From Eledone cirrhosa (lineage: Eukaryota), in NCBI GenBank assembly GCA_964016885.1, contig OZ024742.1:234608001-234672000 (forward strand): DNA of 64,000 nt, read 5' to 3'. Shown here one piece after another: positions 12,836-64,000 of this stretch. The position numbers and the translations under genes are program-made. Under the pieces are notes generated by a model that was not told where the DNA came from, did not search any database, and saw nothing but the letters and a program-made list of their open reading frames with translations. The stretch's first letter is position 1; each line of letters begins with the position of its first letter.

Positions 12836-13805
12836 TTTCATTTATTAGCCACAAGGGCCGACATGTAGGGGACAATACAAAGACAGGGACAGTGGGGGTT
12901 TACAATAAGGTCGAGTAAAAGTGCACAATGGCAAGACTAATTTAACAATGAAAATATAAAAATATAAAATAAACTATGCATAAATATAACAAAATAAATT
13001 CCCCGATAGGGGGTGGACGACCCTGGGGTGATTCGGGTACCCCACCAATCCTGAACCACCCTGCGCTTCTAGGGCACCTAGGGAGAGCACCCCTCTCCTC
13101 AAGTTAGCCAGCCTATAGGCGCATGGTCAGAGTAGGCCCATTCACACGAGCCATTCTCGCCACATTCACCCACCTTTTAGCAAATGTACTGGGGGGCAGC
13201 ACTTCTCTCTCCACCCTCACCCTCCTTTCCAGGTGAAACTTGAAGAAGTTGATGAGGGATTGGCCGAAGAGAAAAGTGTCTGTCTTTAGTCCTTTCAACC
13301 TGGTCCACCATATAATCTCTTTCGCAACTGCCACCAGACAGAGGAAAATGTCCTGCTCTTCCTGACCTAAGGAAGGTGGCGGCTCGATCTTCACTATGGA
13401 CTCAGCCGATAGCCGGATTCGTTCCACACGTGACAGTAGCTGTTCGACATAACTCCACAAGTCAGTAATGCACGGACATTGGACAAGTGCGTGCAGAACG
13501 GTTTCATCGTTCTGTGCGCATCTTGGGCAGGTCCGTCTGACAGCACTTCCGTGCCTGTAGAGTTTATCCCGAACTGGCAGTGCCCCCCAGTAGCACTGCC
13601 AAGTGAGGGATTTCTGGAAATTGTCCATCGTCCCCGGCTCAAAAGTCCTCCGGTACAGACTAGTCAGTTCGACTTCGTCGAGGCCCAAAGCTTCTCCGAG
13701 TGCGTCATCGCACTTGCCCACCACTAATTCTCTATAGAACTCGAGAGTGGAAGTTCCACTGATCGCATTGCCCGCTTGGTAGAGGGCAGTGAGTGCCTGG
13801 CAAAA
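12836..13805 (-). mobile_element. Tx1/L1-clade LINE 3' fragment (zinc-binding C-terminus plus 3' UTR)
   Basis: WQCYWGALPVRDKL..CPRCAQNDETVLHALVQC zf-RVT-like motif. Stop at 13113, minus-strand AATAAA near 12841. Confidence 0.85.
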
Positions 13806-16277
13806 CCAGAAGATGTTGTTTGGACAGCTTGAAGGGAAAGAAAGAGGCAACAACTTGATCCCTGAGGCGGAACAAACTAAGACATTCTGGAGAGTATATG
13901 GGAGCAGGATGTTAAACATAATGACCAGGCAGTTTGGATTGAGACAGTACAAAAGGAGATTAGGGAACAGGCACACCAACAAACTGATTTGAGTATCACA
14001 GTTGAAACTCTTAAGGGGCAAGCCAAAAAACTAACCAACTGGAAATCACCAGGCCCAGATGGTGTGCAGGGGTATTAGATTAAAAATGTAACATCCCTCC
14101 ACCCGAAACTGACAACCATGTTCAATGACTGCTTGATGTCAGGTGAGGTATCAGAGTGGTTGACAAAAGGTACCACAGTTCTGGTAATGAAAGACCGAAT
14201 CAAGGGTAATGATGTTACCAACTATAGACCTATCACATGTCTGTCCGTAATGTGGAAACTGTTAACAAGCATTGTGTCTGAGGAAATCTACCATCACCCC
14301 CACACAAACAACTTGTTACCGGACGAACAGAAAGGATGCCGAAAGAAGTCCCGTGGTACAAAGGACCAGTTACTTATTGATAAGATGGTAATGAGGAATT
14401 GCAAGAGGAGACACACTGGTCTTGCATGGGATGGATAGACTACAAAAAGGCATTTGACATGGTACCTCATTCTTGGATCACCAAAAGCCTAGAGATCTTC
14501 AGGGTGGCAGATAACATCAGACAGTTGTTGAGCAAAAGTATGAAGTCCTGGAAAACAGAGTTAACATCGGGCGGAGAATCCTTGGGAGGCGTGAGGATCA
14601 AGAGAGGTATCTTCCAGGGAGATAGTGTGTCCCCTCTGTTGTTTGTCCTTGCCCTGATCCCCCTGACCATTATACTGCGAAAAGTGAGAGCAGGATACAA
14701 GTTGGGAAAGGGAGAGCTTACCATCAATCACCTTCTCTGCATGGACGATCTTAAGCTCTTCGGGAAGAGCGAGAAGGAGTTGGATGTGCTTGTTGACACT
14801 GTCCGTATTTTCAGCCACGATATATGTATGGAATTTGGTGTTAGTAAGTGTGGAGTCCTTGTGATGAAGAGGGGTAAATTGAGCAGAAGCAATGGAATCC
14901 AGGTACCAACAGGTGAGATGATAAAGGAAATTGACACTGAAGAAGGATACAAGTATTTGGGTATTCTGGAGGCTGACGACATCAAGAACAAAAAAACGAA
15001 GGAATTGATAAGATCTAAATACATTCGGAGAGTAAGGAGCGTATTAAAGTCACATCTGAACAGTAGGAATGCCATAAGTGCAGTAAATTCCCGAGCTGTG
15101 TCTATTATTAGGTACAGTGCGGGAATTCTGAGATGGAATGTTGCTGAACAAAAAGAAATGGATAGGAAGACTAGGAAGCTATTGACTATCTACAACATGT
15201 TCCACAAGAGGAGTGATGTCAATAGACTCTACTTAAGGAGATCTGAAGGTGGAAGAGGTCTTATCAGCATAGAGGACTGTGTTCAGATGGAGAAAAACAA
15301 CCTACACAAATACGTGACCGATAGTAAGGAGCCAATGCTCAGAATTGTACTGAAGGAGAGGACAATAGACCAGGGGATGTCCAAGGAGAAAATAACAACA
15401 AGGAGAAAGAGCAACCTTCATGAAAAATCCCTTCATAGTACCTTCTTTGAGAAAACGGATTTCAGAGATCCACAGACATGGAACTGGTTGAGAAGAGGAG
15501 ACCTTAAAAAGGCTACAGAAGGAATGCTAATGGCTGCGCAAGAGCAGGCCCTCAAAACAAAGTGGCTGAAACACCATATTTACAAGGAGGAGGCTAGCCC
15601 ACTGTGCAGGATCTGTGGAGAGAGAGAGGAGACTGTGGCTCACATTGTATCCGAGTGTAAACACCTAGCCCAGACTCACTATAAAGGCTGGAGACATGAT
15701 GTGATGGGCAGGGTGATCCACTGGCACCTATGCAAAGTAAACAAGTTACCACATTCTGAGAAGTCGTATGAGCATAAGCCAGAGTCGGTGATAGAAAATG
15801 ATCAGGTGAAGGTGCTACGGGATTTTAGGATACAGACGGACAAGAAACTGGAACACAATAGACCTGGCCTGGTGGTTTTGGACAAGGAAAAAAGATTGTG
15901 CCTGATTGTGGATGTGGCCTGCCCATTCGACACGAGAGTGCAAGAGAAGGAGAGGGAGAAAATTAACCGATACCAGGACTTAAAGTGGGAGGTAAAAAGG
16001 ATTTGGAACTGCCATGAAGTCAAAGTGGTTCCGATTGTCATAGGCGCACTAGGTACTATCTCAAAAAGTTTCCAGGGATGGTTAAAGAAAATTGACCCCG
16101 CCCCACTTTTTGGAACACTTCAAAAGGCATGCTTGCTGGGAACAGCAAGAACCTCCGATACGTGCTGAATATCTGAGGCTGCAGGTAGTGGCTTGATATT
16201 CATTTCAACAAACTTTCCAGTTAACTAACATCAATGACTGAGACTCAAAGAACAATAATAATAATAATAATAATAAT
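13801..16277 (+). mobile_element. R4/Dong-clade non-LTR retrotransposon (RT, CCHC, restriction-like endonuclease), 5'-truncated
   Basis: NYRPITCL, IDYKKAFD, GIFQGDSVSPLLF, CMDDLKL, YKYLG, CRICGEREETVAHIVSEC, RHD and NRP[G]LVV..IVDVACPFD. Ends in (TAA)n. Has frameshifts and a stop. Confidence 0.9.
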
Positions 16278-28415: not shown

Positions 28416-31400
28416 GTGAAGGTGACCCGTCTAGGACGGTAGTCACTCCAATTAAAAATGACTGCACAGGGCAGACATGGACTTCATAAAACTGTAGTGA
28501 AGGCAACCAGTCTAGGAGAGTAGACACTCTGAATAAAAACTGATATAGGGGTTAGAGGACACTTGAGTCCAGTAAGACCTCTCTAGTGTTGGTGGCATGG
28601 ATAATGTACCCAGTCAATACTGTAAAGTTGTTGGTGATAGGAAAGGCTTCCAGCCAGAAAAAAACATGCCAAAATTGTGGAAAGTACAACACATAAAGAG
28701 TCACACTAATTCTATGTACAGGGCAAACACTAATCATGTTAGTGCTGCACACAGTAGTGGGGTGGCTAAAGTAGCTGTGTGCGAGAACCCTTTGACCATC
28801 ATCAAGCAATTGCACAGCCTTTTCGTCTTCCAGGTTCAAAGAACTGCCACTCAAAAAACTAAGCTGCCAAGTTACACATCTCAGATATGCCTTTCTCAAT
28901 GTTGGCACCCTGAAAGGTAAATCAAGTGAAATTGCGGAGCTGTTAGAGAGGAGAGAAGAAGATGTATGCTGTGTACAAGAAGTGAGATAGAGGGGTGCCT
29001 CAGTGAGACTACTCACAGGCAAAGTACATAGACACACATTTTTCTGGATAGGAAATGACGATGGAGTAGATGGTGTCGGTGTTCTCTTAGCTGAGAAATA
29101 GACAGATAAGGTGATAGAGTAAGTGACAGATTTATCAAGCTTAGAATAGATAGCTGTAGTAAATAGAATGGTGACAATTACATCTACCTATGTACACCAG
29201 GCAGGACTGAGTAAAGAACAAAAGGACCAATTCTATGAGGAACTTTTAAGACAACCTCAGTTACTGATGAAGAGAGACATCATCATCCTGGCAGGCAACT
29301 TTAATGGACATGTTGAACAGTACCAGGATGGATTCACTGGAGTTCACAGCAGATATGGTATTGACTGAAGAAATGAAGAGGGAATGAGGCTCCTGGAATT
29401 CTATGGTGCAAATGAACTAACCATTTGCAACACAAATTTTAGGAAACCGGCCAGCCATCTGGTCACATACCAATTAGGCAAACACACAAGCCAGATTGAT
29501 TTCTTACATGTAAAACAAGATAGACAGGCAGTAATAAATGCTAAGGCCTTCCCTGGGGAAGAATGTGCAGCCCAACACAAATTAGTTATTAGTGACCTCA
29601 GAATAAACACAAGGCAGAACGAGATATACAGGAAAATATGAAAACAGAAGGTTTGAAAGCTGAAGGACCTTTCTGTTAAATATAGGTTTAGAAAGGTCCT
29701 GCAAAATGCATTTAATGAGAGGGGAGACAACTTTGATACATATGACAGGACAATTCGAAATTCTTACATGACAGCCTATTGTTAGTTACTGGTGAGACTT
29801 GTAGCTGGAGCAAAGCACCATCCAGACAGAGAACGGCACAGTGGAAAGAGCCATTAAAGCCAAGAGATAAGCATGGAAAGACTGGGGAAATGGGGTAGCA
29901 GACACTAGTACCAGGCAGCTAAGAGATAAGCTAGACAACAGGTGTACATAACTTGGAAAGAGACTGAAGAAAGAAAGTTTGCCAATGTCTTACAACATAA
30001 GGATCAGAGACGTGAAGTATTCTGCAATGCAGTGGAAATTAGGATGTTGTTAAGGAAAAGTGTGTTAGAAATGACACTGCTGAACTGACTCTCAAAAGAA
30101 AGAGGCCTGGAAATGTTACTCGGAGAGGCTGAAGAATGTAGAAAATGAATGGTAAGAGATTGACTGCTGAGACGCTAAAAACATTGGGAGAAGTAGGATC
30201 CAAACTAATAACCTGCATAGTCAATCAGGTAATACTGGATAGAGTCATACCCAATGAATGGCACAACAGTAAAATCATAAATTGGTACAAAGGTAAAGGT
30301 GATGCTCTAGAAAGGAGCAACTACAGAGGAGTAAAACTAATGGACCAAGTTATGAGAGTGACAGAAACAGTTCTAGCAAAGCTAATTAAAGAAGGAGTCA
30401 AATTAGATAAGATGCAGTTGGTTTTTTATGCCTTGGTAAAGTACTTCTTAGTGAGACAACTACAAGAGCCAAAAATAAGCCACTATATTTAGCTTTTGTT
30501 GATCTAAAGAAGGCCTTTGACAGAGTACCTTGATCTGGTAGCCCTTAAGAAAATAAGTGTTTAAGAATGGCTTGTGGGAGCAGTGCAAGCCATGTACAGA
30601 GGAGCTGTCAGTAAAGTAAGGCTAGAAAGTGAGTTTAATGAGGAAATGAAGATAATGATAGGAGCTCCTCAGCTGTTCATCCAAGTCATAACAGAGGAGT
30701 TTAAGACTGGCTATCCATGGAAACTTCTCTATGCAGATGATCTGGGAGCCAGCTATTTATCACTGTCACTCATTCTTTCTCCAGAACACAAGACAAAACA
30801 GATGGCTTAAAATCTTAGACATATTGGTGACTAAACAGATTCACAATGGATTCACATGAGGCCACCAAAAGTCACTTTATTTGGAGCCACTTCATAGTGT
30901 GAAAGAAACTCTATTGAGGAGTTGAGAGGAGTATTAAATTACTGCTACGTCTATATCTATGTGTGTGTGTGTGCACGCCCGTGCGTGTGTGTATGTGTAA
31001 TAGTAATATATGAGAACAGTGAAGCATAAATGAACTGAGAGAGAAACTAGGCATAAGAGGAATCAAATGCCGTGTGCAGGAGAGGAGATTATGTTGGTGT
31101 GGACATGTGATGCGTATGAAGGATGACAGCTGTATAAAAACGTTCAGAGCGCTCAAAGTCAATGGAAACCTTGGAGTGGGGAGACGCAGGAAGACTTGGG
31201 ATGAGGTGATAAAAGCCAACCTTGCCCAATTTCACCTCTCAAAGGTGATGACACAGGACCGAGACCTCTGGCCATACACAGTTATACAGAAGACCTGACT
31301 TCCCACGGCTACAAGCCGAAGCATATATGCCATATGCCCCAACCCACCCTCTGATACACCCTCATGAGGACAGGCCAACATAAATGCATCCAGTGAAGCC

Positions 31401-31680
31401 CCCAGCCCACACTGTAAAGTGGTCGTAATGGTGACACAGCAAGAAGTGCCCAGCCCACACTGTAAAGTGGTCGTGTAGGCGTCACAACAAAAGGCACCCA
31501 GTACTATTTATAAATGAGGTTGGTATTAGGAAGAGCATCCAGTTGTAGAAATCAAGCCAAAATCAGTTTTGTATGAGCAAGACATGGTCACCTGACCTAG
31601 CATTGCCCATAACAGGACAACTTGTCTAACCCATGCTAGCATGGAAAAATAGATGTAAAACGGTGGTGATGATGATGATG
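28415..31680 (+). mobile_element. Near full-length degenerate RTE LINE (5' leader, APE endonuclease, RT, 3' UTR, (GAT)n tail)
   Basis: DVCCVQEVR, ILAGNFNGHV, SQIDF, NYRGVKLMDQVM, LLYADDL and RRLCWCGHVMR. Many stops. Part of the RT C-terminus is replaced at ~30745-30990. Confidence 0.9.
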
Positions 31681-31914
31681 TGTGTATATACACACAAATA
31701 TATATATATATATATATCGTCATCATTATCATGAAATATATGTATATATATGTCAATACTCATCTTTGTCCATTTCTTAGAGGGTTCTAAACCCCACTAT
31801 CAGGCTAAAATTTCTTTAGTAAAAAAAATACGGCGAAAGCTTCTATTTCTAATTTTAAACTCACTCACTGTTTCAAAACATACTTACTTGTCATATATAT
31901 ATATTATGTTGGTA

Positions 31915-32152
31915 CCACAAAACATCTAGCCCACACTGTAAACTTGTCGTGTAGGTGTCACAACAAAAAGCACTCAGTCGACACTGTAAAGTGGTTGGCG
32001 TTGGGAAGAGCATCCAGCCATAAAAACCAGCCAGAAACAGTCCTATATGAGCAAGACACAGTCATGTGACCCAACTTGCCTCTAAATGGGACAAACATGT
32101 CTAACCCATGCTAGCGTGGAAGATGGACGTTAAACGATGATGATGATAATGA
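31915..32152 (+). mobile_element. RTE 3'-UTR fragment
   Basis: GGTTGGCGTTGGGAAGAGCATCCAGCC...GGACGTTAAACGATGATGAT. Confidence 0.8.
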
Positions 32153-32347
32153 TATATATTTAGAAAGAGAGAGAGGAACTACTTTCCCAAATTGACACTC
32201 AATTCCTCCCCACACACGCACACCATTTCTGTAACCTCCCTTTATCCTTGCTTCATACACAACACATACACATGCACGCACACCACTCCAGCTACCACGT
32301 AATACACACTCACATTCACAGCACTGTATATACTACCCAACACACAT

Positions 32348-32875
32348 ATCTGGAACCCCTATCTTGCTCAGGACATTGACCGCCTGGAAACTGTTCAGAG
32401 ACGTGCAACCAAGCGAATACCCTCCATCAGGCATCTACCATACTCTGAGCGCCTTGCTTCCCTGGGCATGGATTCATTGAAGCTCCGATGCCTGGCAACT
32501 GACTTGGTAAACACCCACAAAATTGTTAACCATGTTGCCAACAACAACCCTGAGTACCTTTTCGATTTCCATGTGTCTAACACACGTGGACATGCCCACA
32601 AAGTAAGAAAACAGCACAGTTCCCATGACTTTCGGAAACATTTTTTCACGCTCAGAGTTGCTGAAGCATGGAACAAACTACCTGCATCAGTTGTTAGCTG
32701 TCGAGACACTGCATCCTTTAAGGCTTCCATGCTTCCCGAGATCCACCAACACTACAGCTAACACATACACACATGTACTTCCCTAACATTTGTGTATTAT
32801 TCTATGTACTATATTGACGAGTTGTAGTGCACCTGAGCACTTTACACAATAATTTCATTATTATTATTATTATTA
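32348..32875 (+). mobile_element. CR1/L2-clade LINE 3' end with (ATT)n tail
   Basis: NTRGHAHKVRKQ..FFTLRVAEAWNKLP. Same family as 10305-11500. Confidence 0.9.
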
Positions 32876-33070
32876 TATACCTCTGTACACACAGAACTAT
32901 TAATATTTATAATGAATGATTTTTAATTAGTTGTTTAAATAAGCAAAAATTTGGGGAGATTTAGTAATATAATTAACTAAATTATTAAGTGAGGGGCCAG
33001 TGATGTCACATGGGAAGTTTGCAGGTTTCTTTTGGGTGGCTCTTCTGTCTGTGCGTACTGTGTGTGACAT

Positions 33071-34366
33071 GTGTATGTTAATGGCTGCTATGATTCCTAT
33101 GTCAAAAGTATCGACCCCGATTTCATTACAGTCATGGAAACATGGGCACATTCCTTACTCTATGGTGGGGTCTTCAGTATAGCTAGCTACAACTTGTTTC
33201 GTAAAGACCATATTAATCGTGGTGGTGGTGGTGTGATGGTCTATGTTCATTCAAACTTTTCAGCAATTTCTTCTGTTGATTTGAACCAATCACAAGAAGA
33301 AGTATTTTTCTGCGATATACGTATGACCACGTCAACACTTCTACTTGGAGTTGTTTACCACCTCCAAATTACCATCAGGACACACAGCTGTGTGTTATCC
33401 TCAGAGCTGCCACCAGCTAAACAGCCACTTATGTTTTTATTGCAGGCGACTTCAATCACCCTGAGATTGATTGGGAAACCTTTCATTGGCCACAAAGTGC
33501 AAATGATTTCCTTGAGCTAGTGCTGGACTCGAACTGGTTCCAAGTAGTCACCTCCCCAACAAGAGGTGACAACACTTAGAATCTATTCTTTACCACTACT
33601 CCTGAAACGGTTGTTAGTGTTACTACTGAGGAACCTTTAGGTGACTCTGATCATGCTATGATCATTGCCAATCTGTCTCTTATGAGCAGTAACAAAAACC
33701 ATGTCCATCTCCAAATTGTTCGCTTTGACTGGAATAAAGCAGACTGGAACTCTTACTGCACCGAGCTGCAATGCCCAAACTGGCTTGAATTTTACAACTC
33801 TGGAGACGTGAACACTATACTTCAGAACATCCTGAACTCAATATGGACAGCATGTGCAGCATCATTACCGCGTAAGCACAAAAAACATCCCAAAAGTGCA
33901 ATTTGGGAGACTGCAACAGTCCAACTTGTCACGAAAGAACGTTATAATGCTGAACTGACATACAAAGTGCATAAATCAGATATCAACAGAAAAAAGCACA
34001 ATAAATCATTCAACCATCTCAAGCAGGTGACAAAAAGGGCAGTGCTTGAATTTGAACAGTGTATAGCAACCAGCCCTGACAGTAAGGTGTTCTGGAAATA
34101 TGTACATTCAAAGCAGAGACCTCACTCTCCAGTTGGTCCTCTTTGCAATCCCCACACAAGCCAGATTACTGACGATCCCAAAGAATGCGCATAACTCATT
34201 GCTGAATGCTATGCAGGCATTTTTACTGTTGAAAACCAAACGTACCATCTCCACCACCTCTGACATCAAATCTATAACAACTATGGAATTTACACCTGCA
34301 ATGCTGCGACGTCACCTTAAGAATAAGCGCAACTATGCCTCTCCTGGTCTTGATGGTGTTACGTTC
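33071..34366 (+). mobile_element. CR1/L2-clade LINE 5' part (APE endonuclease and linker)
   Basis: ITVMETW, FRKDHINRGGGGVMVYV, AGDFNHP, LGDSDH, KVFWKYV and SPGLDG. Confidence 0.85.
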
Positions 34367-34824
34367 TTTGGCATGTCTTCAACAGTAACAATCGACATCA
34401 ATTATAATTCAGAAAAGATAAAACCTGCCTTTACAGACAATCAATCTATTGTTACAAAGGATGTACGTTTTCCCAAGAGAAAAGTTGATTTAAGTTTAAA
34501 GCTTGATAGAAATATATAGGAAACATTAGCAATATATTATGTATCTGATAGTGATTTATTAGACTTTCATCTTACCTTTTGTGTTTATCAATTATGTTTG
34601 AATTGCAAATTCTCTAATCAAATTCAGATGTTATATTTCTACATATTTAACAACATACATGCAGACTTAAACTACTGACCACAGTCATGACTTCAAATCT
34701 CACCATGGCTATTGTGTTCTGTGCTACTTGAGCAAGGCACTAAATCTGAAAACCTCAACCTGACTGACTGAATGCAGGTACTGCACCTACTTGGCTTCCT
34801 TACATTGGGTATTCAAAATACAAA

Positions 34825-35639: not shown

Positions 35640-36480
35640 TTTTCAATGCCATAGATTTTAGAAACTCTTTTGGCAATATCTTGAGGTTGTATGGAATCCC
35701 AGAAACAATTATCATCCAGATAAGTTCACATCAGATAAACCCCAAAGCATCCAGTGGATGCTTTTCCCCTATATGGATGATCTTGATTATTTGGATGACC
35801 TGGCAACTCTCTCTTTAAAGAGATATTATGTGTTGGAAAAAACTAATTGGCTAAACAATTATGCAAAAAAGATGTTTTTAGCATCAATACCTCAAAAACA
35901 CAAGTCATGTGCATAAATCTCAACAGCCCTGCACATATCACTGTCTAGACTATGTAGAGGACATCACATACCTAGGTAGCATTATCACCAAAGTCAATGG
36001 GGCAAAAAAAGGACATTGAAACTAAGATTACCAAAGCTCATGGGCCAATCACAAGACTTCAGTTGATCTGGAAGTCTAAGCAATATAGTTGTAGGATTAA
36101 GATTAGACTAGCAATGTTAAATATTTCCTAATACTAGAGACATGAATAAGATCAATGCTTTCTATAATTGGTGCCTGAAGAAAATCTCTTGCTTCTTCTG
36201 GCCCAACAAAGTGTCGAATAAGGAGCTACACCACAAAACTGGTTGCAATAGTGTGGTCATGAAATGATATAGTGGCGGCTAAAGTGAGCTCAGAATACAC
36301 TAGGACAGGACACCAAAAATAGCATTAAGATGGACACCACATAAAAAGTGAAAGCCTGGATGCCCAAAACTACCTAACATAAAACAGTTGAAGGTGAATG
36401 AATGGGGCAAGGCACAGAGTTGTTAAAGACTCGAGAAAAAGGCATCAAAACATCAGAGCCTTATTTCTCTAGGAAGAAGA
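35640..36480 (+). mobile_element. Highly decayed RTE LINE fragment
   Basis: ILRLYGIPE, DDLDYLDDL and TYLGSII remnants. Confidence 0.7.
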
Positions 36481-36854: not shown

Positions 36855-37074
36855 CTCTTTAGCATTCATATTACTCTAGATATACTATTATATTTTCATG
36901 GTAAAGGCTTTATCTCGTATAATTATCTCACATAATATCGAATCTATGAGATTTTGAAAGTATTTATTTTGAAAACAATACCTTAACATCAGTTTGAGTG
37001 ACCAGTTGCAGCCAGTTTCAACAGAAAAAGGTAGAGAATTCTGGCCGGTTTTGGCCGGTTTGAACACTAAAGGG
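36855..37074 (-). mobile_element. piggyBac-type MITE, family A
   Basis: TTAA|CTCTTTAGCATTC...GAACACTAAAGGG. Reverse complement of 2546-2765. Confidence 0.9.
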
Positions 37075-37136
37075 TTTAAAAGGTGTTACTATAATGTTGT
37101 TTGTCCTATATTTTAATTAATTTTTTTTTCTTACAG

Positions 37137-37208
37137 GTTCAAATCCTTGAGAAAGATGAAGTTAACAATTGTAGAGATAGCAAACTTTTCAGCACGGTAA
37201 CGGTATAA
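37137..37208 (+). other. Candidate small exon (VQILEKDEVNNCRDSKLFST[VTV*])
   Basis: Very strong acceptor T-rich tract CTTACAG|37137. Possible donor GTAACG at 37197, or stop at 37206-08 with AATAAA at ~37258 and ~37308. Confidence 0.35.
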
Positions 37209-37364
37209 ATGGATTAAAAGGATTACAATTGTACAGAGAAATTTCTGATTAGAATTTAATAAAGAACCACATGCTAGAAAGGCAATGTTACATTATCATA
37301 AGAATTTAATAAATGGGTGACTAAAATTATAAAAATTATAAATAATTAAAAAGTGTAAATGAGG

Positions 37365-37685
37365 AGAAAGTCGATTAAATCGACCCCAGTGTATTACTGG
37401 TACTTTATTTTATTGACCCTTTAAGCTAACCTCGGTGGGGTTTGAACTCAGAATGTAAAAGTATGTAACTATATGCTGTAAAGCATGTTGTCCAGAGTGG
37501 GATTTACGTATAAGCTAAACAAGTTATAGCTTAGGGCCCCCACCTATGTCAGCGACAATTTGTCGCTGACATAGGACATCTGGACATATAAAGGGCCCCA
37601 TTGTCTCAAATAGCTTAGGGCCTCATCAAATCTAAATCCAGCCCCGATGTTGTCTCATGTTCTACTAATACTGCTAATCACCATA
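37365..37685 (-). mobile_element. tRNA SINE interrupted by a hAT MITE
   Basis: GTCGATTAAATCGACCCCAGTGTATTACTGGTACTTTATTTT...TTTGAACTCAGAA. Resumes after 37654. Confidence 0.8.
37493..37646. mobile_element. hAT-superfamily MITE (154 bp) with an 8-bp TSD and a central palindrome
   Basis: TSD ATGTTGTC at 37485-92 and 37647-54. Imperfect TIRs CAGAGTGGGATTTA / TAAATCCAGCCCCG. Confidence 0.85.
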
Positions 37686-37742
37686 CCTAAGTGTCTGAGA
37701 TAATGAGACAGCATGTAATTCATCTTAGAAGAAGTCTTTTAA

Positions 37743-37960
37743 CACTTTAGCATTTAAACCGGCTATATCCGGTCACAATTCTCTCACTCTTTCTGTTGAA
37801 ACCGGCCGTAACTGGTCGCTTATATTGACACTAAAGTACTGTCCTCACAATAAATAACATCAAAATGTCAGATTCGATATCATGTGAAATAATTATATAA
37901 GGTAAAGCCTTTACCACGAAAATACAATAGTATATATAGAGTAATGTAAATACTAAAGGG
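37743..37960 (+). mobile_element. piggyBac-type MITE, family A
   Basis: TTAA at 37739-42 and 37961-64. Collinear with 2546-2765. Confidence 0.9.
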
Positions 37961-38289
37961 TTAAAGCATGGATCTACTGATTCATTTGAGTGAGAATTTA
38001 TATTTTCTCTATATAACATTAACATAAGACTTCATAACATTTTTATAACAACAACTTTTAATAAAAATAATTTTAAAAAAAAGCATTTTTTAACAACTAC
38101 TCTTAATAATTTAATTTTGGGCAAAATTGTATTTTTCAGAAAAATATAAATTGATTAAATAAAACCACAAAAGAGAAAAATAAGATATAGAAATTACCAT
38201 GAGAAGTAATATTTTCCAGTATTTGAGTAAATAAAATATCCATAGGAATAGAATATTCTTTTCATAAACTGGATGATAGTTTGTTTGAC

Positions 38290-40944
38290 TTAATCATCAG
38301 ATACAAATCCAAAGACAGAATCCATATCAAACCAAGCATACTTGTCAACTGAAGGTGTTGTTGAGTTTTTACATTTTGTAGATCTGAAGAACTTCTTAGA
38401 CTGGGCATCAGATTGTTTCCCTTTCGGTTTTGATTGATAACTATCATTTTTGTTTTGTTTTGTTGGAGTTTTGGCTTTGTTGTTATTAGATCCTCCCAAC
38501 ATTCTAGATTTCCTGCTTCTTGTTGAAGTATTATTATCAAGATTTTCTTGGTTTTCAGTTGAAAAGGCTGCTTCTTCAAACTGAGATTGGGGAACATTGT
38601 TCTTCTTTGGTGAATTTATGTTCTTCTGGTGTTGTTTCAGCAATGGAGTCCTTATGGTGTTTTCTCCATTCCTTTGGCATTCAGAGACTGATGAGTCTGA
38701 ATCAGAAACAAGCAACATATCATCAGAGTTAAATACCACTTTTCTCTTCCTGGAACTTAGGTAGCTTGATTTAAATGAATTCATTCTTGAAGGTGTCATA
38801 TTTATTGGATGTTGAGGAGTCATCAAAACTGCTACATGAGGTTGATTCCTTGTAGCAAACCCTGGGCTTTTCATTGTATTTTCATACATTTGCTTCTTCA
38901 TAGTTTCTTTCTCCATTAATATTTTATCTATTTTTTCTTCAAGCTGGATATTGTCGTCCCTTTGTAGTTGAATATCCCGTTTTAGTTCAGAAATTTCACT
39001 TTTATATTGTAAGATTTCTTTTTCAAATTCATTTGTCTTTTCCTTCAGATCATTTTCATACTTCAGTTTCTGTTTTTTGGTCTCATTTTCATTTGTTTGG
39101 AAAATTTCTTTTGCTTTAATGTCAATTATTTTCTGGTTTTCTTTTTTATATTTGTCAAGAGTATTTACCATTTCTTCCTTTTGATTTTCATTTTCTTTTA
39201 AAATCTTCTCTTTATCTCGAACAGCTTTTTCTTTCACAATGGTCATTTCTTTTAGTTCTTCTTGACAACCCATTAAGACCTTATTTTTCTGTTGACAGTC
39301 ATCTAATTCCTTTTGTATTGCCTGAAATTTACATTTATATTCTTCAAGTTTTGTTTCTTTTTCCGTTATTATATCCGAACATTTATTTGCCGAAATGTCA
39401 TTTTCTTCAACTTTTTTATTTAATTTGCTAATTTCTGATGAATATTTATTTTCATCATTTTTCATTTTTGATTTTAGATTAGATATTTCATCCTCAAGTA
39501 GATTACGTTCATTTTTTAGCTCAGATATAATTTTGTTCAGACTATTAGTTTCATCTGAAGATTTTTTTTCAAGTTCTTTATTTATTTTTATGGAATCATG
39601 TAATTGCTCCTCCTTCTCTTGAAATTTACTTTTTAATATTTCTAATTCATCATTCAAGATTTCATATTTTTCTTCTAAAGTTTTAAGTTTTTCTTTTGTT
39701 TTCTCATGCACATCAACAACATCTACATGTATAGCCTTTGCATTAGTTATTTCATCATTTAAAGATATAATATTGTTGTTAAGGCTATTTATCTTGGTAG
39801 TTTTGGAGTTTAACTGAATTTGCAGATTACTTTTCTGGGTTATTTCTTGTTTCAAATTTTCATTCAACTCTGCTTTCTCCAAAATTAACATATCTTTATC
39901 ACTCTTCAAGTCTTCTATCATTTTATTTGCTGATGTATATTTAACATTTATTTCTCCGTGCTCTTTTTCTAGTTTTTCATAAGTTTGATTTGCTTCTTTT
40001 AAAAGATTTTCTAAAGAAGCTTTCATTAATAAAGTTTCCTTGATTTTCTCAGCTGATTCAAATTTAAGGGTTGTGTACTTAATCTCCATCTCAGAAAGAA
40101 ATTTTTTAGATTCTTCACAATCAGATTTTAGTTGGGTTTTCACCTCTTCAGTATCATGTAGGTCTTTATCTAATTGTTTCACCTTTTCATTTCCACAACT
40201 AATTACATTCTGTAACTCCTCAATAACATTTTGCATATCTTCTATTCTTTTTTCTAAACATTTTCTTTGCCTTTCTTTCTCTAGAATAATATTGTTAATT
40301 TCATTTTTTAATTTATTTTCTTCTTCCTTGGCTGAAATATTCAAATCATTGAATTTTACTGAAAGTTCTTCAAATTTTTCAAAATATTCTCTTTCTTTAT
40401 ATTTTAATTCGCTGCTTTCTGCTTCACATTGCATCAATTTATTTTCGACAGTCTGTGAATGTTCTTTGACAATGTTACACATTTTCCGAGTACAATCAAT
40501 TTTCCTCAAAATTTCTTCTCTATTGGTCATTTCTTCTTGCATCTTAATACTTAAATTTTCATTTTCTATTTGCAATTCCATAAAAGATTTTCTAAGATTT
40601 TCAGTAGTTTGGGTTAATTCTCCAATCTTTTTCTCTTTTTGTTTGTTCTCAGTTTCTGTAGAAAGTTTCCATTCCCTTATTTTTTCAGCTTCCTGTCGAA
40701 GGCGGCTATGCAAGGTAAATAGTTTGCATTCAACATCATGAGTATTTATAGACTGTTTCTGACTCTCGTTATTTTCTTTGGAAATAAGCTTTTCTTGGAA
40801 CGATTGATACAGTGTTGTACTTTTGTGCATAATAAGGGGCATTTTAATTTTTTTTGTCAAACTAATACCAGAGTTAGAACTATTTAATAGATTTTCATCA
40901 GTCTTCTCATGAACTTGAGACATCGATGATAAAGAACTCTGCAT
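38290..40944 (-). CDS. SYCP1: Synaptonemal complex protein 1 (transverse filament), single-exon ORF, 884 aa
   Basis: The N-terminal motif LHSRLRQEAEKIREWK...LRKSFMELQIENENLSIKMQEE...TRKMCNIVKE matches the conserved SYCP1 motif (vertebrate YSKLYKEAEKIKKWK...QRKAIQELQFENEKVSLKLEE...TRHLCNLLKE). It has a long coiled coil, a second motif EMVNTLDKYKKENQKII (cf. EMVALMEKHKHQYDKII) and a basic S/T-P-rich tail. Confidence 0.92.
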   Translation of the reverse strand: MQSSLSSMSQVHEKTDENLLNSSNSGISLTKKIKMPLIMHKSTTLYQSFQEKLISKENNESQKQSINTHDVECKLFTLHSRLRQEAEKIREWKLSTETENKQKEKKIGELTQTTENLRKSFMELQIENENLSIKMQEEMTNREEILRKIDCTRKMCNIVKEHSQTVENKLMQCEAESSELKYKEREYFEKFEELSVKFNDLNISAKEEENKLKNEINNIILEKERQRKCLEKRIEDMQNVIEELQNVISCGNEKVKQLDKDLHDTEEVKTQLKSDCEESKKFLSEMEIKYTTLKFESAEKIKETLLMKASLENLLKEANQTYEKLEKEHGEINVKYTSANKMIEDLKSDKDMLILEKAELNENLKQEITQKSNLQIQLNSKTTKINSLNNNIISLNDEITNAKAIHVDVVDVHEKTKEKLKTLEEKYEILNDELEILKSKFQEKEEQLHDSIKINKELEKKSSDETNSLNKIISELKNERNLLEDEISNLKSKMKNDENKYSSEISKLNKKVEENDISANKCSDIITEKETKLEEYKCKFQAIQKELDDCQQKNKVLMGCQEELKEMTIVKEKAVRDKEKILKENENQKEEMVNTLDKYKKENQKIIDIKAKEIFQTNENETKKQKLKYENDLKEKTNEFEKEILQYKSEISELKRDIQLQRDDNIQLEEKIDKILMEKETMKKQMYENTMKSPGFATRNQPHVAVLMTPQHPINMTPSRMNSFKSSYLSSRKRKVVFNSDDMLLVSDSDSSVSECQRNGENTIRTPLLKQHQKNINSPKKNNVPQSQFEEAAFSTENQENLDNNTSTRSRKSRMLGGSNNNKAKTPTKQNKNDSYQSKPKGKQSDAQSKKFFRSTKCKNSTTPSVDKYAWFDMDSVFGFVSDD

Positions 40945-41049
40945 TTTGCATGTAATTTTTGAACAAGTTTCTTTTCATATAATAGTTTTAAACATCGCAT
41001 TGAAGTTCAATAACAAATGATTAGTTGTCGTCTGCTGAAATACAAAAGT

Positions 41050-41150
41050 AAAGCCGAGAGAAAAACGCTGTGGAATGTAGTAGCGCCCCCAGCGGTAGTT
41101 CGACAGAGTTGCCTCCCTTGTTTCGCGCAGGCGCCAATCGCCATTTATAT
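41050..41150. promoter_or_regulatory. Putative bidirectional core promoter (SYCP1 / SNRPA1)
   Basis: CpG-rich patch between the divergent ATGs. NRF1-like CGCGCAGGCGCC (41124-35), CCAAT (41134-38), YY1-like CGCCATTT (41139-46), GC-box-like GCGCCCCC (~41083). Confidence 0.65.
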
Positions 41151-41286
41151 TACATGTTACCATTTTTTTTCTTTTGTGAATTGAAATTTATGATTGTGTA
41201 GTTGAATATACTTCAGAAAACTGATTGTGGATTATTATTATAATTAGTGTTACCTTTAATAATTTATTGGTACTAAACATTCAAAT

Positions 41287-41368
41287 ATGGTTAAACTATC
41301 TACTGATTTGATAGAACAGTCAGCTCAATACACCAACCCGGTAAGAGACCGTGAATTAGATCTCCGAG
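41287..41368 (+). CDS. SNRPA1: U2 snRNP protein A', coding exon 1
   Basis: MVKLSTDLIEQSAQYTNPVRDRELDLRG. Donor GTAACC. Confidence 0.97.
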
Positions 41369-42046
41369 GTAACCACGTTTTCTTTTCAGCCATTTCCTTC
41401 CTCAAACTTTTTCCATAATTTCTACTGACCAATTTTTGTTAAATTTATGGTTTAGTTGTTATTAAAAAAGAATACGAGTATCCTACTAGTTAGTATATCT
41501 CCCTGTTTTTCTTCGTGAAACTCAGAAAGCAACAAAATAGCCGAATGCTAACTGAAATTTTTAAAATCCTTGTACATTTTCAAATTGTCCTGTTGCAATA
41601 AATTAAATCTGTGTAAAAATTAATATGTATCGGTTGGGTTTATTTAGAGATTATCATTTTAAATCGAACTTTTCAATTTTTAATACAGTATTAATGAATT
41701 TTAAATATTACAAAAACAAATAAATAAATATACAACTGGTTCCTAACCCAAAGGTCGCAACATTTGAAGTTGTCCGGCATTTATTTTGAGTTCATTAATT
41801 TATGGCAAATTATCTCAGTCTAAAATTCTGTTGCTATTTACGAGACATATTTTTCATAACGTACAACTTCAGTATTTTCTCTATATCATACAATTATTGA
41901 TGATAATCACATTTTCATGGTCATTTTCGACGAGTGAAATAACGGTGTCATTTGAAAAAGTTGGGAACCACTTATTTAAAAAAGACATTACTGTTGTGTA
42001 TTATATATAATTGGGTCTCTTAATAGATTTTCTTATTTTATTTCAG

Positions 42047-42087
42047 GCTATAAAATTCCTGTTATTGAAAATTTGGGCGCTACTTTG
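42047..42087 (+). CDS. SNRPA1: U2A' exon 2
   Basis: TTTCAG| (G)YKIPVIENLGATL |GTAAAT. Frame is preserved. Confidence 0.95.
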
Positions 42088-42177
42088 GTAAATATCTTTC
42101 TAACAACACAAAATTTGTTTGTTTTTTCCATGCATCATGTGTATATCATTTACCATCCGTTTTCCCTGCTAACAAAG

Positions 42178-45740: not shown

Positions 45741-47773
45741 AACAACAGCACGCCACCATTATCTGAGCTATGAAAAGATAGCAACATGTCCAGATGGTCA
45801 CTACACCCCATTTGATTCATCACTGCATGTTTGAGTCTTGTGTAGTTGTCATGGTACAACTGGTACAGCAGATCTGTGAGTTGTACCTTATTGTTCAGCT
45901 GAGTACTTACATTCCTTAAAGATTGCTCAATCAGAGGTTGACATGGGTTTACACAACGAAACAACAATCAAACTATTTTGAGTTTAGTACCACAAAATAA
46001 TGAAATCCCTTGTCATAAGTGAACTGTATTTGTATTAGGACTTGTTTTTAGGTAAGTGGATTAAGTCAAAGGAGAGTGTGATTTTTTTTTTTCATAGATA
46101 AGCTGCATTAGAAGAAAACCAAGAACAGATCTCAAAACACTGAACCTCACTAAATAGATGATAACGGAACATTAAGAGTATAGAGAAGCTGTGCTGGAAA
46201 AATTCTGTCCAGCCCATGCAAGCTTGGAAAAACAGGCATAAAAAGGATGATGATTGTACAGTGCTAGTGACAAAATATGAATGATGCTTTGATTGACAAA
46301 CTAGTGTGGCAGTAATAGTACTAGCAGTGGTACCTAACCATACCTAGGTTTATTACTACCTAAAGTAAATATAATCACATGAATTCTCTATATTTTGGGT
46401 AATTAGCTTTAAAAAGATGTTGATAATTTTCAGTTGGTCCTGGAATACTGATTTGGTCAGAATTATTTCATTAAAAAAATGCCGAAAATGATTTAAATTG
46501 AGCTTCAGAAAAATGTGCAAATTTAGAACCTAGAATGAAATTTTATCCTTAAATTTTTTTATAGTTTGGGAAAACTTGCTTTTCTTTATTTATGTGACAG
46601 TCATCACTTTAAGCCAGTTTTTCATGCTTTGCATGAGTTAGATGTCACCTGGACTTTATCCCAGGTTCATGCATGTTAAGTGACAGAGTACAGTCTGTTG
46701 CAGAGCTAGCCCCTATCCCCCAGCTGCCACAGTATACATATCAGTTGAGTGAACTGGAGCAACTGGACATGTTTCCATGCTCAAGAACACGATGCACCAA
46801 CCAATCTAAGGATCAAATCCACAACCTTATAATCTTAAGCCCAACACACTAACCATTAGGCAATACATTATAAAGCTCTCTGTAAATACTGTAAAGTGGT
46901 TTGTGATAGGTAGGGCATCCAGCCACATAAAACCTGCCAAACAAAGGGTTTGGAGGATGCTTCAGTTGTGACAATGACATAACAACCTCTACTGTGCACG
47001 CCAAGAAAACATAAGACCGTACATAAGTGAGATGCAGACTTCCCCTGTACGCGGCCTGTCTGGGAGGTCAGTAGCCCTATTTCAGTTCTGACATGGTCTA
47101 TCTAGATCTGTCTAACCCTTGCTAGCAGGGAAAGCAGACATTAAACAATGATGATTTCTGCCAGGAGCTAAAGATAAACAAATTTCAGAAAAATTCACAT
47201 AACGTATAAGATTCTCTGTGAAAAGATGCTTTACTATGCCACATTTCAGCTATCTACAGCTACATCATTTTTCGTCTGCTTTTCCATGCTGACGTGGATA
47301 GGATGGGACTTTTTGAGACAGAATTTTACGATTTGATGCCAACCCTTTTAGTTGCTTCTTGTTTGTATATAAAGATAATTGACTATTTCATTTGACTAGC
47401 AATCTTTGTAGCATGGGACGTAGGAACTGAGCGACAAATGATCCTCTTTCTCTCTCTCCCCCTCTCTCTCTCTCTATATATATATAAGGCTGCCTCAAAT
47501 CAACAACAATAATGATTTCTTAAGGTACAGAAGAGATGAATGCATAAAAATACAATTGTGACATTAAAAAAACAAATTAATGGTTTAGAATTTTTACCAT
47601 ATTTCATATTTTACTTCTTATATGAAACCATTCAGAATTGCTGGCTCACTGCATTTCTGCAGGTTCAATATTTTGTTTTTTTATTTTTTATGTATTTTCA
47701 TTTGGCTTGATTTCTTTTTTATGTTAGAGTATCATTTTTAAAAGACATTTGAACTGGCAATGTTTACTTGTAG

Positions 47774-47880
47774 GATCAATTTGATACCATAGACTTTTCT
47801 GATAATGAAATTCGGAAACTAGATGGATTTCCTCTCTTGAAACGCCTAAAGTGCCTACTCTTGAGCAATAACAGAATTGT
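47774..47880 (+). CDS. SNRPA1: U2A' exon 3 (LRR)
   Basis: TTGTAG| DQFDTIDFSDNEIRKLDGFPLLKRLKCLLLSNNRIV |GTAAGT. Confidence 0.97.
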
Positions 47881-48019
47881 GTAAGTATACTTTATGATCA
47901 TATATATATATATACCATCATTTTACAGTCCTTTTTTCTACACACACACATATATATATATATGCATTTCTTCATAAGATCAGCCAAGTTTCTTGTGGTA
48001 TTTACAGTGTATGTATATA

Positions 48020-63165: not shown

Positions 63166-64000
63166 CATCATCATCATCATCATCAACGTTTAACGTCCGT
63201 GTTCCACGCTTGCATGGGTTTGGACGGGGGTAGTCCCACTTGAGGCAAGAGTGATTGTCTTGCTCGCATAGGACTGTCTGGCAGGTTTTCTACAGTTGGA
63301 TGCCCTTCCTAACACCAACCACATTTACAGTGTGGGTCTGGGAGGTTTTTACCGTGTTGCCTACACGGCCACATTACAGCGTGGACTGTGTGTTTTTTTG
63401 TCGTGACACCTACACGATCTCATTTGTTTCGGCCTCGATGGCGCGGCACCAACATAACTTTACATAGAACGGGGTGGTGTGGATCGGGTGGGGGTGGTGG
63501 TGGTGGGACGGGGTGTATTTTGTTAGAGATGCCTACTGGCTGGAGTAGGTTTTACTATATATTTAGGTAAGGCGGGTCTTCTCTGTTACTGAGTAGCGCC
63601 AAAGGTCTCGGTCCAGTGACATTGTCTTGGAGAGGTGTAAGTGTGTGATGTCGGAGTTTATCAGCTCGTCCCAGGTTTTTCTAGGTCTGCCTATTCCGTG
63701 ACTACCGTCTATCTTTATTGCCCTGCACTTTGTTATACAGCTATCGACTTTCATGCGCATCACGTGTCCATACCAACGTAGCCTTCTCTCGAGTAAACAA
63801 CATCTGATCCCTCTTATCTCTAATTTTTTCCTTAGTTCGTTTATGCTTTGCCGTTCACGTATATTACTGTTACACATCCAGCGGAGCATGCAAGCTTCGT
63901 TCCTCTCTAGTCTGCGTATATCCTCTGCACACAATGCCCAGGTCTCACTGCCATGCAGCATTGCTGTTCGTATGCAGGCATCGTACAACCTGCCTTTCAT
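63166..64000 (-). mobile_element. RTE LINE 3' end, open ORF, continues beyond the window
   Basis: MKGRLYDACIRTAMLHGSETW..RRLRWYGHVMRM..GRPRKTWDE. Closely matches 58751-59490 in inverted orientation. Confidence 0.92.

Follow-up and report, generated by a model that had tools for sequence, protein, structure and literature searches.

A single-exon SYCP1 gene head-to-head with SNRPA1 in the octopod Eledone cirrhosa: a likely case of retrogene replacement

Described replacements of SYCP1 and the Eledone locus

Replacement of the meiotic gene SYCP1 by a retrogene was described in amphioxus (Branchiostoma) by Garstang & Ferrier (2018; PMC5803294), and the available text of that article attributes the sole, single-exon SYCP1 of Ciona to the same process. 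Here we report on a single-exon SYCP1 gene of Eledone cirrhosa, located in a window of 64,000 nt (assembly GCA_964016885.1, contig OZ024742.1, positions 234,608,001 to 234,672,000; coordinates without a prefix refer to this window) at 38290..40944 on the minus strand and facing SNRPA1. The phenomenon is already known from amphioxus and Ciona; the octopods are a new lineage for it. The reading that we prefer, with a probability of about 0.6, is that a near-full-length SYCP1 mRNA gave rise to a retrocopy lying head-to-head with SNRPA1, and that the multi-exon parent was likely lost afterwards. An orphan retrogene is the best reading because one copy was detected, three coding introns are absent, the neighbour is unlike that in oyster, and the protein is conserved region by region.

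As far as the available text describes the amphioxus case, SYCP1 likewise has a single coding exon, the parent is absent, and the gene lies head-to-head with a partner (CHIC) across a predicted bidirectional promoter (PMC5803294). The two cases differ in that the lineages are independent and the partner in E. cirrhosa is SNRPA1. Amphioxus SYCP1 has a multi-exon 5' untranslated region (UTR) over 3259 bp, whereas in E. cirrhosa 342 nt separate the two start codons and the 5' region retains an ancestral word; movement was argued for amphioxus and is only inferred for E. cirrhosa. Ciona differs in another way, since tunicates have compact genomes in which replacement is said to occur commonly, in contrast to the 3.0-Gb E. 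cirrhosa genome with its long introns. The same text remarks on a frequent grouping of Cephalopoda with Tunicata, probably caused by long branches, and the retrocopies that it names are those of amphioxus, Ciona and mouse; octopus is not named there.

Teleost hatching-enzyme genes offer a further parallel, as essential reproductive genes that repeatedly lost all introns and kept their promoter (Nagasawa et al. 2019; PMC6385490). In the model of that article, which includes reporter assays, the upstream promoter is copied because transcription has an additional start farther upstream; in E. cirrhosa the element carried along would, by prediction, sit within the normal first exon. The orphan retrogenes of Ciomborowska et al. 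(PMC3548309) are, in the text available, also functional retrocopies whose parent was lost, but they were described in human. The literature searched, which covered few subscription journals, contained no report of an intronless cephalopod SYCP1 or of SYCP1-SNRPA1 linkage; public annotation probably already shows how many exons the octopus gene has. The earlier note on this DNA, made from the sequence alone, had missed both the divergent arrangement of SYCP1 and SNRPA1 and the prior replacement of SYCP1 in amphioxus and Ciona.

The reading frame, its copy number and the ancestral introns

The open reading frame (ORF) of 2655 nt runs from ATG to TAA, encodes 884 aa and has zero internal stops. 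Pfam SCP-1 (PF05483) matched aa 74-208 (E=3.4e-15; 55.6 bits against a curated cut-off of 23), and comparison of the N-terminal 170 aa with the PDB gave the human SYCP1 N-terminal structures 6F62 (E=7.7e-16) and 6F5X as the sole matches. The top database match was an SYCP1-like protein of Octopus sinensis (888 aa, 73% identity over 100% of the query). Alignment with mollusc orthologues showed that the protein has the long coiled coil at its centre as well as the conserved parts of the C-terminus, and the human C-terminal structures 4YTO and 6F63 were matched, at the level of the alignment, by the SYCP1 family profile. Both conserved motifs claimed in the earlier note were found: the N-terminal conserved region CM1 (aa 74-215; 40300..40725, minus strand) and the C-terminal WFDxDSxFGF end (aa 869-884; 38293..38340, minus strand), the latter seen in seven of nine aligned SYCP1 sequences and absent from both turtle proteins. 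The interval 37940-42150 is spanned by single contigs from three runs of one sample, which may be the assembly's own, and these show neither differences nor gaps, indicating that the ORF is not an assembly artefact. The uninterrupted, intronless gene described in that note was thus borne out by the frame, the Pfam, PDB and O. sinensis matches and the agreeing DNA contigs.

Conservation varied along the protein. In comparison with O. sinensis SYCP1, the final 16 residues were the most conserved part (94% identity), followed by CM1 (90%), the TP/basic patch (80%), the coiled coil (71%) and the tail (53%). When neutral point mutation was simulated 1000 times at each level, the frame survived in 3 runs with 7% amino-acid change and in 0 with 13%. 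By this protein-level proxy, in which regional identity and simulations stand in for dN/dS, the copy appears to be intact and kept as a functional protein under purifying selection. Five contigs of run X4 (151-332 nt, depth 2-3) lie over SYCP1 and its 3' edge; a similar piece was also seen beyond the gene, at 36254-36404, and a spliced SNRPA1 contig in the same run has a depth of 49.5. The X4 contigs over SYCP1 are no evidence either way on its expression.

Cephalopod SYCP1 proteins are 884-910 aa long and those of bivalves and gastropods 1015-1177 aa, the difference of 100-290 aa lying mostly in the coiled coil; a shorter coiled coil would predict a narrower synaptonemal complex. The GC content at third codon positions (GC3) of the coding sequence is 25%. 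A cephalopod-like SYCP1 of 910 aa (P0024), with 64% identity in CM1 and from contigs of at most 3076 nt, probably comes from squid or cuttlefish, judging by its sequence. An Atlas search with SYCP1 returned generic coiled-coil clusters only.

Four queries (own CM1, own DNA, abalone CM1 and P0024) each matched only this SYCP1 locus in the 3.0-Gb assembly, which consists of 1796 contigs; the candidates scored were the best 150 of 251 for own CM1 and the best 50 of 1505 for P0024. As a control, a nemertean SNRPA1 query brought up five short exons in this assembly (54-80% identity), so the exons of a multi-exon SYCP1 parent ought to have been seen as well. The same protein cluster has one 888-aa SYCP1 from each of O. 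sinensis, O. bimaculoides and O. vulgaris, and a search of representative proteins gave no second octopus-like SYCP1 cluster. The gene is the sole detectable SYCP1 in the assembly and the parental copy is absent, subject to assembly gaps and best-candidate scoring. The earlier note had allowed that the copy either replaced its parent or coexists with it; no intron-containing paralog was found by the four queries, which speaks for replacement and against coexistence.

Vertebrate SYCP1 has about 30 exons. To place the intron positions, we used a scan of metagenome contigs (mostly animal DNA) in which 34 SYCP1 loci were confirmed out of 196 pattern matches; by exon sequence these loci form 14 groups and are not 34 independent lineages. 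An AAG/GT junction directly after the equivalent of Lys103 was present in 31 of the 34, oyster among them, the other three being two uninterrupted ORFs (L004 and L005) and one locus cut by the contig end. Of 13 loci examined, 11 had a second intron, with GT after the Gln125 equivalent, and 4 had a third, with a phase-2 GT within codon 148, the pattern being unmatched in the remainder. CM1 of E. cirrhosa runs unbroken across all three positions. The earlier note had set its retrogene reading against a gene ancestrally intronless in molluscs; oyster DNA instead has introns in the coding region, with three coding exons in aa 1-102 (L006/L009, which match C. virginica SYCP1 over 47 aa at 100% identity). 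According to the available text of PMC5803294, SYCP1 has multiple exons in lophotrochozoans.

Because introns occur at identical positions in oyster, in the mollusc-like locus L028 and in annelid-like and other loci, the intronless SYCP1 is, on this comparison of gene structures, a derived state in octopods. The clean loss of several introns indicates a cDNA step, by established reasoning. Of the earlier claim that the gene is a retroposed copy, the derived intronless state and the conserved protein therefore stood; insertion at a new site is the likelier route, with loss in place as its competitor.

Many short database SYCP1 proteins cease to be similar right after Gln125, as expected from intron read-through, and in P0160, P0161 and P0119 the read-through after the equivalent intron starts with Ala, not Val, which is compatible with a GC donor. 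In Mytilus, two SYCP1 models whose accessions are consecutive are distinguished by a 24-aa block inside the protein. Uninterrupted full-length SYCP1 ORFs were seen at L004:234-3389 and L005:239-4264 (1341 aa, tandem TPNVRTA repeats, nearest Elysia), and in P0028; if genomic, these would be additional independent intronless cases.

The SNRPA1 partner and the 5' region

SNRPA1 lies on the plus strand with its ATG at 41287. It has at least seven coding exons, extending to about 56716, and introns of about 0.4-5.7 kb that contain repeats, in agreement with the multi-kb introns reported in the earlier note. Exon 1 (41136..41368) is supported by a spliced contig of run X4 that starts at 41136 and whose GT..AG joint skips 678 nt; exons 2-4 lie at 42047-42087, about 47772-47881 and 50474-50599, and exons 5-7 at about 54760-54862, 55287-55487 and about 56620-56714. 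In O. vulgaris, SYCP1 (CAI9726211.1) and SNRPA1 (CAI9726212.1) have consecutive accessions on the same 128.6-Mb sequence, so the pairing is older than the divergence of E. cirrhosa and Octopus; the Octopus gene would then presumably also be intronless. In Sepia, no SYCP1 accession was found for comparison with SNRPA1 (CAE1289418.1). SNRPA1 was not found upstream of SYCP1 in the 34 metagenome loci (best E 0.09), about five of which (L006, L009, L019, L028 and L035) include the start codon with upstream DNA.

Oyster SYCP1 faces a uDENN/DENN gene, which we take to be DENND5, with 532 nt between the start codons. The best E. cirrhosa match of this oyster gene is on assembly contig C6, whereas SYCP1 is on C3 (379 Mb), and no SYCP1 remnant was found in 200 kb near the C6 match. 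Three genes that we assume to be the neighbours of human SYCP1 at 1p13 are also dispersed, with BCAS2 on C1, AMPD on C17 and SIKE on C3. SYCP1 has likely, though not certainly, moved from its ancestral locus; the position of SIKE speaks against movement. Farther from SYCP1 lie a dual-specificity phosphatase and a phosphodiesterase, presumably CDC14 and PDE10. Opposite-strand genes of housekeeping type upstream of intron-bearing SYCP1 in the scanned loci were DENND5-like (L009:1-3570), a transaldolase (L036:1-1700) and an exon at L024:3778-4149 that we regard as ARFGAP2/3-like, although it has no Pfam match; the partner varies by lineage.

Between SYCP1 and SNRPA1 lies a GC- and CpG-rich core (41059..41134, unstranded) with 55-61% GC against 21-26% in its surroundings, predicted to be a bidirectional promoter. 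Read by eye, it contains words that we take to be CTCF-, E2F-, CCAAT- and YY1-like. Upstream of SYCP1, E. cirrhosa and oyster have in common a 12-mer on the sense strand (41028..41039, minus strand), detected by sequence comparison and predicted to be a first-exon (5' UTR) element. In E. cirrhosa 83 nt lie between the end of its 9-mer core, AGCAGACGA, and the ATG; in oyster the word lies 79 nt before the ATG after removal of a predicted 88-nt 5' UTR intron (L009 3954-4041). The full 9-mer is identical in E. cirrhosa, oyster, L019, L021, L022 and L023. The 8-mer core AGCAGACG was present sense-upstream in 5 of the 19 remaining intron-bearing locus groups and antisense in 0 of 19 (shuffle mean 0.28), and 0 of 500 shuffles reached five groups with any of five 8-mers. 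A word of at least 12 letters with at least 5 G/C was shared by only 6 of 2704 real windows.

Donor-like sites follow the 9-mer within 5 nt in L023, 21 nt in oyster and 64 nt in L019, and at 116 nt in L021, whereas L022 and E. cirrhosa showed no such site; if the predicted donors are real, the word is transcribed. Its AGACG presumably fits the consensus of the downstream promoter element (DPE), which would put the transcription start at 41060 in a TCT-like context; the +1 predicted in this way was not a consistent initiator in other loci. An AT-rich 13-mer is also common to the E. cirrhosa and oyster 5' regions, out of order, and a MAFFT promoter alignment did not bring the common word into register.

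Words that we consider CTCF/YY1-like (CAGATGGCG, GGGGGCGCTA and CGCCAT) were seen near the SYCP1 promoters of E. cirrhosa (41075-41092 and 41139-41147), oyster (L009:3677-3692) and L019 (4868-4882), and at C6 about 18359410, upstream of the octopod DENND5. In the annelid-like loci L021 (2095-2126), L022 (495-524) and L023 (2158-2186), a direct repeat TTGACC-N-TGACC, which to us resembles a nuclear-receptor site, precedes AGCAGACGA; it is absent in E. cirrhosa and oyster. Past the SYCP1 stop, very high-copy short repeats begin at about 320 nt (36880-37080 and 37361-37965), with none in the ORF, and an inverted repeat pair at about 36920 and 37915 suggests a miniature inverted-repeat transposable element. 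A 60-nt exon-like segment with a strong acceptor (37137-37196, plus strand), 1.1 kb past the stop, may be chance or part of a convergent transcript; considered as a candidate exon of a plus-strand gene in which SYCP1 would be nested, it had no Pfam match. Fragments of ORFs judged by eye to be of the long interspersed nuclear element (LINE) type (reverse transcriptase) and of DNA transposons occupy 13113-16168, 28600-34500 and 57236-64000.

Origin of the single-exon gene

Under retrogene replacement, a spliced, near-full-length SYCP1 mRNA, abundant in meiotic germ cells, would have been reverse-transcribed, presumably by a LINE-type enzyme, and the copy would have inserted back-to-back with the promoter of the housekeeping gene SNRPA1. 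Divergent SYCP1 transcription may start from the GC-rich core that it has in common with SNRPA1, and the first-exon element AGCAGACGA, carried along, would help to keep meiotic expression. With its own element and the adjoining open promoter, the copy would have been expressed in meiosis and the parent would have become dispensable; the protein would still build the transverse filaments of the synaptonemal complex. We also put forward, as a tentative and rather doubtful extension, that SYCP1 has part of its meiotic promoter within its transcript. In this proposal the lophotrochozoan, DPE-like first-exon element AGCAGACGA would let a full-length retrocopy beside a housekeeping promoter be born meiosis-competent and able to replace its parent. 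If true, it would explain the repeated replacement in amphioxus, Ciona and octopods, and perhaps in the animals of L004, L005 and P0028.

Several observations weigh against retrogene replacement. Intron-bearing SYCP1 genes can also be head-to-head with a neighbour (DENND5 in oyster; a transaldolase on the opposite strand upstream in L036), and SIKE is 5.6 Mb from SYCP1 on C3. Coleoid genomes are heavily rearranged, with linkage groups spread over 1-8 octopus chromosomes in the part of PMC9068888 available, so a change of neighbours is expected anyway and movement is unproven. No poly(A) tail or target-site duplication was recognisable by eye in the AT-rich 3' flank, as would be expected if the event is old. 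A genome search with the Pfam SCP-1 profile missed even the known SYCP1 locus and is uninformative, and the P0024 search had a stricter first look. As to the 5' word, its presence in both E. cirrhosa and oyster is weak by itself, as 96 of 3000 shuffles had a common word of at least 12 letters, and the AGCAGACG 8-mer was picked after the matches were seen. Four of the five loci with this 8-mer resemble related annelids, and about four lineages are independent; it is absent in 14 of 19 groups, in several of which the upstream DNA is short, nor does it occur 5' of the L004 and L005 frames. In E. cirrhosa the word can also be taken for a splice acceptor (T-tract and CAG) preceded by donor-like sites; on that reading the 5' UTR would have kept an intron.

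The best-surviving alternative is intron loss in place, in which recombination with cDNA, in one event or in steps, stripped the resident gene of its introns and left the ancestral promoter; the SNRPA1 pairing would then be older than the loss or come from rearrangement. We consider it possible, though on balance unlikely. The ancestral word 83 nt before the ATG would be kept in this way, the nearness of SIKE fits a gene that stayed where it was, and coleoid scrambling can account for the separation from DENND5. Conversion by cDNA is expected to give 3'-biased intron loss, and a possible acceptor at about 41036 fits such a bias. However, many introns would all have been lost while the neighbouring SNRPA1 keeps multi-kb introns, and SNRPA1 was not seen upstream in the other loci described above. 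Moreover, L019 and L023 have the word without a preceding T-tract, indicating that it is not simply an acceptor.

Very improbable, by comparison, is a multi-exon parent that persists unassembled or too diverged, with the E. cirrhosa locus as a second, germline-specialised copy. The fragmentation of the assembly into contigs and the scoring of best candidates only leave some room for it, but the four queries led to one locus while the short-exon control worked, and the three Octopus species have one protein each with no second octopus-like cluster.

The earlier note had also suggested an escape from meiotic silencing of a sex-linked parent. An exon at C28:59357071-59357271 (L083), which we take to be SPAG9/JIP3-like, marks C28 as the likely Z; a genome search with the JIP_LZII profile gave no match and is uninformative. 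In favour of escape, the available text of PMC10925132 describes an old cephalopod Z with ZZ males and ZO females, and SYCP1 is now on a contig other than this putative Z. Nevertheless, SPAG9/JIP, a Z gene in that article, is by this exon on C28 (one marker only), none of the four candidate former neighbours (DENND5 on C6, BCAS2 on C1, SIKE on C3, AMPD on C17) is there, and the word 'meiotic' does not occur in that preprint. We therefore give this suggestion hardly any credence.

That SYCP1 is ancestrally intronless in molluscs has a negligible chance: it would fit the two uninterrupted loci among the 34 (L004 and L005) and P0028, a full 1149-aa SYCP1 called on a 12.4-kb (12,413-bp) ENA contig, but oyster, the mollusc-like L028 and annelid-like and other loci have introns at identical positions, which refutes this reading unless those loci are misassigned, and L004 and L005 may be transcripts.

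Retrogene replacement in E. cirrhosa would reveal no new kind of system. The 5' element is a short, testable sequence that may explain how such a copy kept its germline expression. A protostome, large-genome case now joins two cases in chordates where this essential meiotic gene is likewise a single-exon sole copy, and the recurrence therefore looks like a property of SYCP1 and not of one lineage.

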